Part shown: piece after piece, positions 5,724-51,420 of the stretch | Position numbering within the stretch: the stretch's first letter is position 1 | Layout of the letters: every line of letters begins with the position of its first letter | Virus record (IMG/VR): IMGVR_UViG_3300050015_000276 | Coordinates: 1-64,000 of that record | Source of the DNA: a virus | Reading direction: 5' to 3' (one strand) | Length of the DNA: 64,000 nucleotides | The notes under the pieces: generated by a model | Told to the model about the DNA's origin: nothing | The model's database searches: none | Seen by the model: the letters and a program-made list of their open reading frames with translations, nothing else | Position numbers and translations under genes: made by a program

Positions 5724-5795
5724 CGGAGTGTAGCCTAGCGGCCAGGCACTTGTTTTGGGAACAAGTTCACGCAAGTTCGATTCTTGCCACTCCGA
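5724..5795 (+). tRNA. trnP: tRNA-Pro (anticodon TGG), CCA not encoded
   Basis: CGGAGTG/CACTCCG acceptor, GCCT/AGGC D stem, CTTGT-TTTGGGA-ACAAG anticodon arm, GCAAG-TTCGATT-CTTGC T arm. Confidence 0.95.
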
Positions 5796-6042: not shown

Positions 6043-6140
6043 TCATTCCACTCGGTTTAATATTCGGTAACGGTTTTAATGTCCCATAGTCGTTTACTTG
6101 GTTTAATAAATGGTACAGGATTTATTTTAAGAAATTGACG

Positions 6141-6420
6141 GTATTATTCGTGTATTACCCTATTTGGGTTGCGAACAAGAAGAGGCTGCGATGCCTCCAT
6201 CTCCACCATCTCCTCCATAATTAAAGTTTTATTATGTGGGGATGAACTAGAATCGATTGGCGTTAATCAGGATATGGGGACGAATACGTGAAGTGCTCAC
6301 GATAAACAGAACAAAACAACAAACGACGAAAGCAATTTCTCGTACTTGCAAATGGCCGCCTAAAGCGGTTCAAGCAGCGCGCCCGGAGGAGCGGGGACCA
6401 GAATCCTCCACTTTCACTTT
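6141..6420 (+). ncRNA. ssrA: Circularly permuted (two-piece) tmRNA
   Basis: T arm + CATCTCC-A-CCA (6182-6208) lies upstream of GGGGATG (6238-6244), giving a G3:U70 acceptor; tag frame ...TNDESNFSYLQMAA-TAA (6319-6363); outer ends approximate. Confidence 0.85.
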
Positions 6421-48855: not shown

Positions 48856-48950
48856 TCGCGTAGGACCGCTCTAGGTTGCATTTGTTAATACGGGCTGTGG
48901 GGTGATAAGGGGTCTACTGGAGTAATGCAACCTAGAGCGGTCCTACGCGA
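48856..48950. repeat. 27-bp perfect inverted repeat with 41-nt G-rich spacer
   Basis: TCGCGTAGGACCGCTCTAGGTTGCATT (48856-48882) / AATGCAACCTAGAGCGGTCCTACGCGA (48924-48950). Confidence 0.95.
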
Positions 48951-49140
48951 CCTTTGCGCATTTGAATTGTTTATGACGGGGCCTGTGGCCAGCAAATACT
49001 TCGGACATTGCAGATTGTGACAAATTATGGAGTTTACAAAATTGATTTAAGCCAGATATATTTTCTTGATGTCCATCTGGATTGGGTGGATTAACTACGG
49101 TATTTGTAATACGGTAAATATAATAAATATTGGTAGACAT
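48943..49140 (-). pseudogene. Internally deleted GIY-YIG homing endonuclease remnant
   Basis: YYIYRITNTV followed directly by NPDG..ISGLNQFCKLHNLS.SAMS.V..G.R..HK (NUMOD/HTH-like tail); AAGGA SD; TATAAATA (minus, 49200-49207). Confidence 0.6.
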
Positions 49141-49229
49141 TTTGTGTTCCTTTGTAACACGGAATGTGGTATGTGGTTTATTAGTGTAAGCCACATACCT
49201 ATTTATAGGAAAATAAAGAGGAACAAAAT

Positions 49230-50466
49230 ATGCAACCTACCAGTAGGGAAACGTTTATACAATACTGTAAAGCGAATTTAGGAGATGGAATTATACACAT
49301 CGAACTAACAGACGCCCAGGCTAATAATTGTGTGGATGACGCGCTTACGATGTGGAGAGAATACAGTTATGAGGGAACGCAGCGGACGTACCTTAAGCAC
49401 CAAGTGACGGCTCAAGATATGATTAACCACTGGATACCGTGTGACGATTCCATTATGTCAGTGGTAAGAATAATTCAATGCAACGAGGGAAATTTAAATA
49501 TTTTTGATGTCCGGTATCAACTCCGTTACTGTGTAGCGGCTTAAGGAAGTAATTTCTTAAGCAAACTCCGTTAATTGCTGGAAACTCCTTTCATAGAGGA
49601 CAATCAGCAGCCAAGCCAAGGAAACTCTTGGAAGGTTCAACGACTATGGCAATTGCCAGTAGGGTTCAAGTGGACTCGAAATGCGGAGCATCCAACAATC
49701 ATTGGATGGTGATATAGTCTGATCTCCTAGGTAACTAGGAGAGGTTAAATGGCAACGATTTAACCGCAACATAAATGTTACAAGACTTTTATAATTTCTC
49801 TAACGTTTCCATAAATGTTTGTGGCTTTTTCGAGTAATCGGAAAATGAAAACTCTGTTAATTGCTGGAAACTCCTTTCATAAAGGACAATCAGCAGCCAA
49901 GCCAAGAAAGTAATTCTTGGAAGGTTCAACGACTAGGATTTAATCCGTAGGGAATAGTATTCCCGAAATGCAGAGCATCCAGATTTCCTGGATGGTGATA
50001 TAGTCTGATCTCCTAGGTAACTAGGAGAGATTAAACGGTAACGGTTTAATCGTAACATAAATGGCAACATTACGTCATTACCATGGAGAAACTCCGGCTC
50101 ATTGATTGGCTCATGAACCCGGAACCCACAATATCTTTTGAGCGTCTTGCCAATCGCATCTATGTTAATGCGGATTGGGGATACAGAGTAAAGCAAGGAG
50201 ACTTCTTTGTATTCGAAGTATACCAATGGCTTGATGAACTTTCATATCCACGTATTTGGACAGATAGATGGTTAAAATCATATGCCACCTGTTTGATGCG
50301 GAGAAATTGGGGTTCTAATTTAAAGAAATTTAATGGTATCCAAACCCTTGGTGGTGTCCAATTAAACGGACAACAAATCTATGACGAAGCGATGGATGAA
50401 AAGAAAGATTTAGAAGATATCCTTTATCGTGATTATCAGATACCACCTAGATTGTTTATTGGCTAA
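49230..50466 (+). CDS. gp13: Neck protein gp13, spliced from exons 49230-49526, 49778-49812 and 50064-50466 (244 aa)
   Basis: FIQYCKANLG...IELTDAQ...CVDDAL; spliced junctions read FDVRYQLR-LQDFYNFSNVSM-QHYVITMEKL; WLKSYATCLMRRNWGSNLKKF.G..TLGGV.LNGQQIYDEA. Confidence 0.92.
49527..49777 (+). ncRNA. Group I intron (IA2-like), gp13 intron 1, 251 nt, no ORF
   Basis: P AATTGCTGGAAAC, Q AATCAGCAG, R TTCAACGACTA, S GATATAGTC; P1 CCGT/GCGG with U.G; P7.1 and P7.2; terminal G49777. Confidence 0.93.
49813..50063 (+). ncRNA. Group I intron (IA2-like), gp13 intron 2, 251 nt, no ORF
   Basis: Same P/Q/R/S elements; P1 CCAT/GTGG with U.G; P10 ATGTT/AACAT; terminal G50063. Confidence 0.93.
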
Positions 50467-50468
50467 TA

Positions 50469-50500
50469 TCTTCAGGACGGAATTAATTCCGTCCTGAAGA
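50469..50500. repeat. 32-bp perfect palindrome
   Basis: TCTTCAGGACGGAATT AATTCCGTCCTGAAGA. Confidence 0.95.
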
Positions 50501-50559
50501 ACCCGTTATCATAACGGTCGTTAATTGACATCCTCAATGTTCTTTGTTACCCTTGTTAT

Positions 50560-51000: not shown

Positions 51001-51420
51001 ATGCTAAGCATTGACGCCGAGAAAATTGCCTGGGACCTGATACAACAATACGCTCCAGGCTGGTCATTTGAATTTGACCGAGGCACTCGCCGCTGCGGCT
51101 GTTGCAATTATCGGAAACTCCAGATATCGCTCAGCCTTCAATATGTCCAATTGAATTCCGAGGAATGTGTGCGGAATACCGTTCTGCATGAACTGGCTCA
51201 CGCCCTTGCTGGATTTGCGGCACACCACGGACCTGATTGGCAATGGTGGTGCCGCAAGTTAGGTGCTCGTCCAGAACGCCTGAATACGGAAGCGGTGGTG
51301 ATCTATAATGTATTCGCAGATTGCCAGTGTGGACCGAATACGCACAAGAAAATGCGGATGCCTAAGGGTACACGGATTTGCCTCAGATGCCGCCAAGAAT
51401 TGACTTGGAGAAGGATATAA
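51001..51420 (+). CDS. SprT-like zinc metalloprotease
   Basis: RRCGCC, TVLHELAHALAG, HHGPDW, C-terminal CQC/CLRC. Confidence 0.88.
   Translation: MLSIDAEKIAWDLIQQYAPGWSFEFDRGTRRCGCCNYRKLQISLSLQYVQLNSEECVRNTVLHELAHALAGFAAHHGPDWQWWCRKLGARPERLNTEAVVIYNVFADCQCGPNTHKKMRMPKGTRICLRCRQELTWRRI

Follow-up and report, generated by a model that had tools for sequence, protein, structure and literature searches.

How an essential virion gene of a T4-like phage comes to be interrupted twice, with only 35 coding bases between the interruptions, is the question raised by gp13, the neck gene at positions 49,230 to 50,466 of the virus record IMGVR_UViG_3300050015_000276. The record is 179,687 bp long with direct terminal repeats and represents a T4-like peat phage of about 180 kb; the stretch analysed here, called the window, is its first 64,000 nucleotides (nt). 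Phage group I introns have classically been studied in nucleotide-metabolism genes. A first-pass annotation of the window took the two introns in gp13 for a local duplication with retargeting of the internal guide, and proposed that they might act as an assembly checkpoint. Comparison with related phages leads to another answer: the introns are not a private duplication but members of a mobile family found in gp13 of relatives and in gene 32 of others, and they have probably spread by trans or collaborative homing, as selfish elements accompanied by a free-standing endonuclease. The locus is built as follows, with insertion sites numbered as described below.

49230-49526, plus strand: gp13 exon 1, 99 codons, ending ...YQLR; phrog_211 (head-tail adaptor Ad2), E 7e-13
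49527-49777, plus strand: group I intron 1, at site 1, phase 0; guide GCGG pairs with exon CCGU; identified by RF00028, covariation and fold
49778-49812, plus strand: micro-exon 2, 35 nt, encoding LQDFYNFSNVS plus the AT of a Met codon; continuous in intronless alleles
49813-50063, plus strand: group I intron 2, at site 2, phase 2; guide GUGG pairs with exon CCAU; identified by RF00028, fold and the site-2 orthologues L189, L191 and L197
50064-50466, plus strand: gp13 exon 3, the G of the Met codon, 133 codons and stop; phrog_211, E 1e-16
49703-49743, plus strand: 41-nt repeat running from the 3' strand of P8 to P9, identical to 49989-50029 of intron 2; a likely substrate for exchange between the twins

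The group I model RF00028 (gathering score 50 bits) has only two matches in the 179,687-bp genome, both inside gp13. Each covers the full model (positions 1-253) and lies well above the gathering score, at 103.5 bits for intron 1 (49517-49741, E 1e-25) and 95.9 bits for intron 2 (49803-50027, E 2e-23). Both introns are 251 nt long and neither contains an open reading frame (ORF) of 60 amino acids (aa) or more, which bears out the earlier description of two ORF-less IA-type introns of equal length; in-frame stops stand five codons into intron 1 (49542) and eight codons into intron 2. The last exon base is U at both 5' splice sites (49526, 49812) and pairs with a G in P1, and the terminal (omega) G is present in both (G49777, G50063), its position being fixed by colinearity with intronless homologues. 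The two fold far better than shuffled sequence (z-scores of -5.6 for intron 1 and -5.0 for intron 2) and differ from each other by compensatory changes in P2, P3, P6, P7.1/P7.2, P8 and P9.2. These include the changes in P3, P7.1, P7.2 and P9.2 that had been described between near-identical cores. The fit of each internal guide to its own exon, with a U.G in both P1 helices (U49526.G and U49812.G), was likewise found, as was the occurrence of CATAAATGTT at both 49770 and 49810, the only two places in the 64-kb window where it stands. Two extra hairpins, P7.1 and P7.2, lie between P7 and the 3' strand of P3 in both introns (49647-49678 in intron 1), and the T4-type nrdB intron, one of the best phage-database matches, shares about 78% identity with the core. 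On the basis of P7.1/P7.2 and the likeness to nrdB type members, both introns appear to fit subgroup IA2, and both are predicted to splice.

Joined, the three exons give 735 nt and a 244-aa product that aligns without a gap at either junction with 12 uninterrupted homologues (243-262 aa), all of which carry the junction peptide RYQLR-LQDFYNFSNVSM-QHYVITMEKL without change. The proposal that double splicing restores a 244-aa gp13 is upheld by this colinearity. Exon 1 covers positions 723-812 of phrog_211 and exon 3 covers positions 844-964, and exon 3 is 88% identical to the uninterrupted protein P0001. All gp13 homologues carry a precomputed match to PF26809 (T4 gp13 neck protein/head-tail adaptor Ad2), and identity to the annotated gp13 of cyanomyoviruses and of the Methylophilales phage Melnitz is about 41%; a search against a local copy of Pfam gave no match for the gp13 exons or for P0002. 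No second copy of gp13 was found anywhere in the genome, and because the gene is present only once, the 244-aa protein would need both introns to be excised from the late transcript, as the first-pass annotation had supposed. Its remark that the 35-nt micro-exon is not a multiple of three also stands: joining exon 1 straight to exon 3 shifts the frame, and an exon-skipped product would be truncated.

The introns take on a different meaning when gp13 of related phages is considered. Relatives were found through one metagenome scan and a search in which the C-terminal exon was compared with proteins as long as itself. The exon search returned gene calls of 125-159 aa, each one half of a gp13 gene that had been split; public metagenome annotations divide such genes into fragments of 99-187 aa and 125-159 aa. 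Intron positions in the relatives were set by colinearity with the conserved coding sequence. This survey of gp13 introns in metagenomes, which had been put forward as a check, yielded related introns at four sites as well as intronless alleles. The four sites fall within 54 nt, in the most conserved coding stretch of the gene: site 0 after DIR, site 1 after YQLR, site 2 inside a Met codon (AT/G, the slash here and below marking the insertion point) and site 3 after QH. Twin introns occupy sites 1 and 2 in the window and in L189/L190, and sites 0 and 1, separated by a 12-nt micro-exon, in L157/L158. Single introns are found at site 1 in L152, L188 and L196, at site 2 in L191 and L197, and at site 3 in L154-L156, and there is none in gp13 of L003, L004, L182-L187 and L198. 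The twin arrangement is therefore recurrent, since other lineages hold pairs at sites 1 and 2 or 0 and 1, and each of the sites used in the window is also found occupied singly. Megablast comparison of the locus with 50,697 phage records returned nothing, and among 30 gp13 loci from viral contigs no intron was present in the 16 scanned. Extra gp13 length in L023 was considered as an intron and rejected as an in-frame protein insertion; this distant gp13 (L023:518-1540) has 340 aa, with a Thr/Ser/Gly/Ala-rich insertion of about 100 aa after residue 63.

Presence and absence of the introns cut across the relationships of the host gene. A tree built from the exon-3 protein groups the window with three intronless alleles (clade support 97/95); it also pairs L157 (sites 0 and 1) with L188 (site 1), and L191 (site 2) with the intronless L185, as sisters. 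The exon-3 proteins of L189 (sites 1 and 2) and the intronless L187 are identical, and the hot-spot DNA of L187 is the spliced L189 sequence base for base, which verifies the predicted junctions. The site-2 intron of L189 (L189:2017-2258, the same in L190) ends in A rather than G; the intronless L187, which reads ...TCCATGCAG, sets the first base of the downstream exon at the G of ATG. It is either a splicing-impaired copy seen in two samples or an intron with an unusual 3' splice site.

An alignment of 11 gp13-family introns, each with 6 nt of its 5' exon, gives a consensus of 65 pairs in P1, P2, P3, P4, P5, P6, P6a, P7.2, P8, P9 and P9.2; P7, which is invariant, lies outside the nested structure used for this count. 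Paired cells amount to 96.1% against 80.4% in shuffles, and double-sided changes affect 40 of the 65 pairs against a shuffle mean of 21, neither value being reached in any of 500 shuffles, while controls in which the partner was slid along the alignment pair at only 31-45%. The P7.2 helix (helix 8) covaries across the family. The U.G at the 5' splice site is present in 11 of 11 introns, and the pair beside it varies with the exon: at sites 0 and 1, with exon CCGU and guide GCGG, it is G-C, whereas site 2 (exon CCAU, guide GUGG) and site 3 (exon ACAU, guide GUGU) have A-U there. Because of the compensatory changes, the U.G and the covariation of P1 with the exon, this comparative evidence suggests that all 11 copies have been under selection to splice. 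It also bears on the notion that the gene is dead, its introns no longer splicing and gp13 a pseudogene or an assembly artefact. Decay is possible in this family, as the A-ending intron of L189 indicates, but in the window the exons are intact, conserved and present in single copy, compensatory changes maintain every helix, and both introns retain the U.G and the terminal G. Independent contigs moreover reproduce the sequence; one of them, a Logan contig of run X2 (49703-50018, zero mismatches), spans the micro-exon. A dead gene is on these grounds scarcely credible.

Sequence comparison among the introns speaks to their origin. The window introns are 75% identical to each other, and the site-2 intron of L197 is closer to both (82% and 79%). 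The P1-P2 segment follows the insertion site, that of window intron 2 being 81% identical to the site-2 intron of L189 and 49% to window intron 1. The P7.1-P7.2 segment exists in two types that are independent of site: identity here is 32% between the two window introns, against 84-86% to foreign introns (81-84% between intron 1 and L157 and L188, 86% between intron 2 and the site-1 intron of L152). P9 is identical within a genome, as seen in the 41-nt identical run of the window twins; in the L189 twins P7.1-P7.2 is identical and the stretch from P9 to the 3' end 96% identical, with P1-P2 at only 45%. The gp13-family introns are mosaics in which neighbouring copies appear to exchange sequence, and such exchange would explain the identical P9 region. 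Two patterns tried as markers of the family, the P4-P6 core (more than 119 matches) and the P9.2 hairpin (20 matches, none in gp13), were rejected as generic to many phage introns.

A local tandem duplication in this genome, placing a copy of one intron 286 nt downstream with later mutation of its guide to suit the new exon, would account for the equal length, the repeated CATAAATGTT and the identical runs at an offset of 286, of which the 41-nt run is the longest and further ones measure 26 and 24 nt. The twins also score 219 bits against each other, compared with 111 bits or less for 119 unrelated viral-contig introns with the same P4-P6 core. However, alleles with site 1 only and site 2 only exist elsewhere, the same pairing of sites 1 and 2 recurs in the distant L189 lineage, P1-P2 follows the site, P7.1-P7.2 is shared with foreign introns and the L197 intron stands nearer to both twins than they do to each other. 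The local duplication favoured in the first-pass annotation is accordingly improbable, but the guide retargeting that went with it is borne out for the family as a whole.

The 41-nt repeat has a further consequence, in that assemblies break or take a short-cut there. In runs X3 and X4, which hold a strain about 96-97% identical to the window, a contig joins 49702 to 49989 and drops 286 nt including the micro-exon. This join was not accepted as a real variant; it is probably a k-mer assembly short-cut through the repeat, because exon 3 of the strain has in-frame substitutions, as in a working gene, and because run X1, with no mismatch to the window, likewise has no cover of 49741-49854. A real recombinational deletion between the twins would look identical and would be lethal.

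A candidate source of mobility lies directly upstream of gp13.

48946-49194, minus strand: GIY-YIG homing endonuclease remnant, 83 aa, divergent from gp13 and directly upstream of it

What survives in the remnant is the N-terminal GIY strand together with the C-terminal DNA-binding domain; the catalytic core is gone, and the window ORF has no complete catalytic domain (GIY, YIG, Arg, Glu, Asn). It aligns to residues 6-37 and 174-217 of a 219-aa protein encoded at the same position in L190, which is intact (PF01541 GIY-YIG at 30.1 bits against a cut-off of 22.6, plus NUMOD3). Residues 38-173 of that protein (136 aa, or 408 nt) are deleted in the window ORF, and a contig of the near-identical strain in run X4 is longer by exactly 408 nt between 49081 and 49082, which makes the window remnant a recent in-frame deletion of the catalytic core. 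The C-terminal part of the remnant matches phrog_2081 (E 8e-6). The same slot holds an intact 253-aa HNH-type homing endonuclease in L157 (phrog_655, E 4e-22; P0027 has no match in Pfam), the last 45 residues of which show 48% identity to the window remnant; L188 has the L157-type HNH gene with a frameshift, and remnants with different deletions occur in L189, L191 and L154-156. ORF-less introns and a free-standing endonuclease gene therefore stand side by side at gp13, the gene being intact in relatives and a remnant in the window. An endonuclease gene or its remnant is found upstream of gp13 in seven of eight intron-bearing lineages and in none of five intronless ones (hypergeometric p of about 0.005, a value that ignores phylogeny), the slot being free of any endonuclease trace in the five intronless lineages of the clade with at least 1.4 kb of upstream sequence. 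The endonuclease that L003 has 2.5 kb away is unrelated. The plus-strand neighbours of gp13 in the window include no homing endonuclease, the relevant ORF being on the minus strand.

Several observations around this gene stand apart from the comparison. A 14-pair hairpin (49168-49199) between the start of the remnant and the start of gp13 overlaps the first codons of the remnant, and could sequester its translation start; hairpins with this effect are known for some T4 endonuclease genes. A GIY-YIG homologue (L005:3793-4239) lies directly downstream of a distant intronless gp13 (42% identity), so that the gp13 neighbourhood may attract endonuclease genes more widely. The genome holds at least six further HNH-type free-standing endonuclease paralogues outside the window (G000: 68664-69056, 79062-79268, 85575-86213, 141636-142241, 153498-153689 and 179120-179674), one of them with an internal TGA.

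The exons themselves retain a possible trace of transfer. In a sliding comparison, positions 241-420 of the window coding sequence are nearest to intron-bearing alleles (L189 92%, L154 93%) as against 75-78% for L183, and the rest of the gene is nearest to the intronless L183 and L182. The pattern is suggestive of arrival of the introns by DNA recombination with co-conversion of flanking exon, and is graded no higher because the segment is the most conserved part of the gene and guide pairing constrains a few sites within it. Taken together, the distribution, the mosaicism and the linked endonuclease point to selfish introns that probably spread by trans or collaborative homing, which would proceed as follows. 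The ORF-less introns would move at the DNA level together with the endonuclease gene divergently upstream of gp13. The endonuclease would cut nearby intronless gp13 alleles, and repair of the cut would bring in the endonuclease gene together with introns and flanking exon, the introns either interrupting the target or hitch-hiking with it. Self-splicing would keep each intron harmless. Once fixed, the endonuclease would decay, in the window through the 408-nt in-frame deletion, and neighbouring introns would then exchange sequence. Because a guide needs only a short match, the introns may have reached new sites, whether through reverse splicing or through relaxed cleavage by the endonuclease; the near-repeats at sites 0 and 1, the guide shared with gene-32 introns and the single-base differences among the guides of sites 1, 2 and 3, all detailed below, would fit this.

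Some evidence weighs against collaborative homing. The first 240 nt of gp13, which separate the remnant from the introns, resemble intronless relatives and are not of donor type, so that one unbroken tract of import is not in evidence. In the intron-bearing L196, 1.3 kb of upstream sequence shows no trace of an endonuclease. The endonuclease target could be intergenic or unrelated, the link with the introns then coming from proximity only. Some raised identity is expected at so conserved a hot spot even without recombination, and the lineage counts are small and non-independent. The introns might instead have spread without an endonuclease, by reverse splicing into guide matches of 4-6 nt followed by reverse transcription and recombination, or by ordinary recombination during co-infection, the endonuclease being unrelated. 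Such a route would suit the first 240 nt and the near-repeats at sites 0 and 1 (TCCGT/TACCAA and TCCGT/TTACAA), as well as the guides of sites 1, 2 and 3, which differ by single bases. It would also suit gene 32: sites 0 and 1 and the gene-32 site share YCCGU/U and the GCGG guide, the gene-32 introns of co-occurring phages (L163, L164, L174 and L177) being located after TGCCCCGT and 89% identical to window intron 1 over 57 nt of P1-P2. The occurrence of endonuclease genes or remnants in seven of the eight intron-bearing and none of the five intronless lineages speaks against it, and spread of this kind is judged unlikely.

A more specific history, which combines guide changes with the endonuclease, can be put forward as a tentative conjecture. 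One intron lineage may have passed between gene 32 and sites 0 and 1 of gp13 by way of YCCGU/U, and changes of one base at a time in the guide (GCGG, GUGG, GUGU) may then have taken it to sites 2 and 3. A modular endonuclease, in which the same DNA-binding domain carries either a GIY-YIG or an HNH cartridge, would then have spread every allele so formed among the phages. Introns in gene 32, which encodes the single-stranded DNA-binding protein, lie at the zinc-finger motif CPV/C in L163, L164, L174, L175 and L177. That of L174 (L174:3337-4512) carries a 326-aa ORF (DUF7487, nuclease-like) in the P5 loop, and that of L177 (L177:10345-10748) has a P5 extension of about 170 nt.

The same distribution bears on the proposed checkpoint, according to which two obligatory splices would act on the supply of the neck protein as a timing or assembly control, perhaps via exon skipping. 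Circumstantially, a single-copy gp13 dependent on both splices, with a truncated and frame-shifted product on skipping, would allow such a role. However, close relatives, one of them with identical exon sequence, have no intron, one intron or introns at other sites, and the pattern is what gain and loss of selfish elements, with decay of the endonuclease, would leave. L187 is intronless although its hot-spot exon sequence is that of L189, and such intronless near-identical phages argue that the introns are dispensable selfish elements. The checkpoint was therefore rejected for want of support and is considered very unlikely.

Multi-intron phage genes, introns in virion genes and collaborative homing are already known. 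The gp13 introns resemble the IA2 introns of nrdB, td and nrdD (sunY) in T4 (Tevenvirinae) in their P1-P9 organisation with P7.1/P7.2, in the P9.2 hairpin, in the early in-frame stop and in their T4-like myovirus host. Unlike these, they interrupt a virion neck gene rather than a nucleotide-metabolism gene, have no internal endonuclease ORF or remnant, and stand 35 nt apart in a family that uses four sites in 54 nt. Precedents for collaborative or trans homing are the psbA intron of cyanophage S-PM2 with F-CphI, and mobE with the nrdB intron of T4 (PMC3984707, PMC2790892, PMC2988022). There, as at gp13, presence varies among relatives, and the flanking exon of gp13 may likewise be co-converted, but gp13 differs in having two endonuclease families (GIY-YIG and HNH) with a shared DNA-binding domain in the same slot, several insertion sites, twin introns and, in the window, an endonuclease already deleted. 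Several related group I introns in one gene, with alternative or skipped products possible, are shared with orf142 of Staphylococcus phage Twort (three group I introns, exon skipping) and with DNA polymerase genes of Bastillevirinae (PMC11878797); in contrast to these, the skipped gp13 product would be frame-shifted, and the micro-exons are of 35 nt (window) and 12 nt (L157). Self-splicing introns in late virion genes have been described in Cluster J mycobacteriophages and in the lactococcal phage Tuc2009 (PMC3706429), where, as here, a late structural gene is interrupted in a genome rich in free-standing endonucleases, although those phages belong to other groups, the genes differ and the introns are single. 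Replacement of mobC/mobE by SegH/Hef in T4-related phages, according to Sandegren et al. 2005 as cited in PMC2988022, similarly places different catalytic families in the same slot of relatives, but the endonucleases of the gp13 slot share a homologous C-terminal DNA-binding domain (48%) and lie beside an intron hot spot. Neither gp13 nor gene 13 appears in the 2010 review of mobile DNA in T4 and its relatives (PMC2988022), and no report of introns in gp13 of T4-like phages was found.

Elsewhere in the window, gp13 is not followed by gp14 or gp15 as in T4 (50470-50545); a hairpin lies 3' of the gene, followed by small ORFs and a SprT-like protein (51001-51420), and L198 has the same order. A scan for sigma-70 promoters and terminators gave nothing above shuffled expectation. 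A permuted two-piece transfer-messenger RNA (6098-6412 and 5724-5795; RF04321 at 78.2 bits, alpha-proteobacterial model at 52.6 bits) lies beside a transfer RNA, which may hint at the host group.

The window thus presents an essential virion gene of a T4-like phage that would depend on two ribozymes split by a 35-nt exon. The population picture is more interesting than the feature in the window: the introns use four sites within 54 nt, are mosaic and leave micro-exons of 12 and 35 nt, and the endonucleases beside them come from two families that share one DNA-binding domain. There is a practical warning in it, since gene callers fragment gp13 in public metagenome annotations. With its twin types, its intronless alleles and an endonuclease ranging from intact to nearly erased, the hot spot is a compact natural data set that bears on the open question of how free-standing endonucleases and introns come to cooperate. 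If ectopic transposition by guide retargeting is true, gp13 would become the first protein-coding system in phages to allow the reconstruction and testing of ectopic intron integration, perhaps through reverse splicing.

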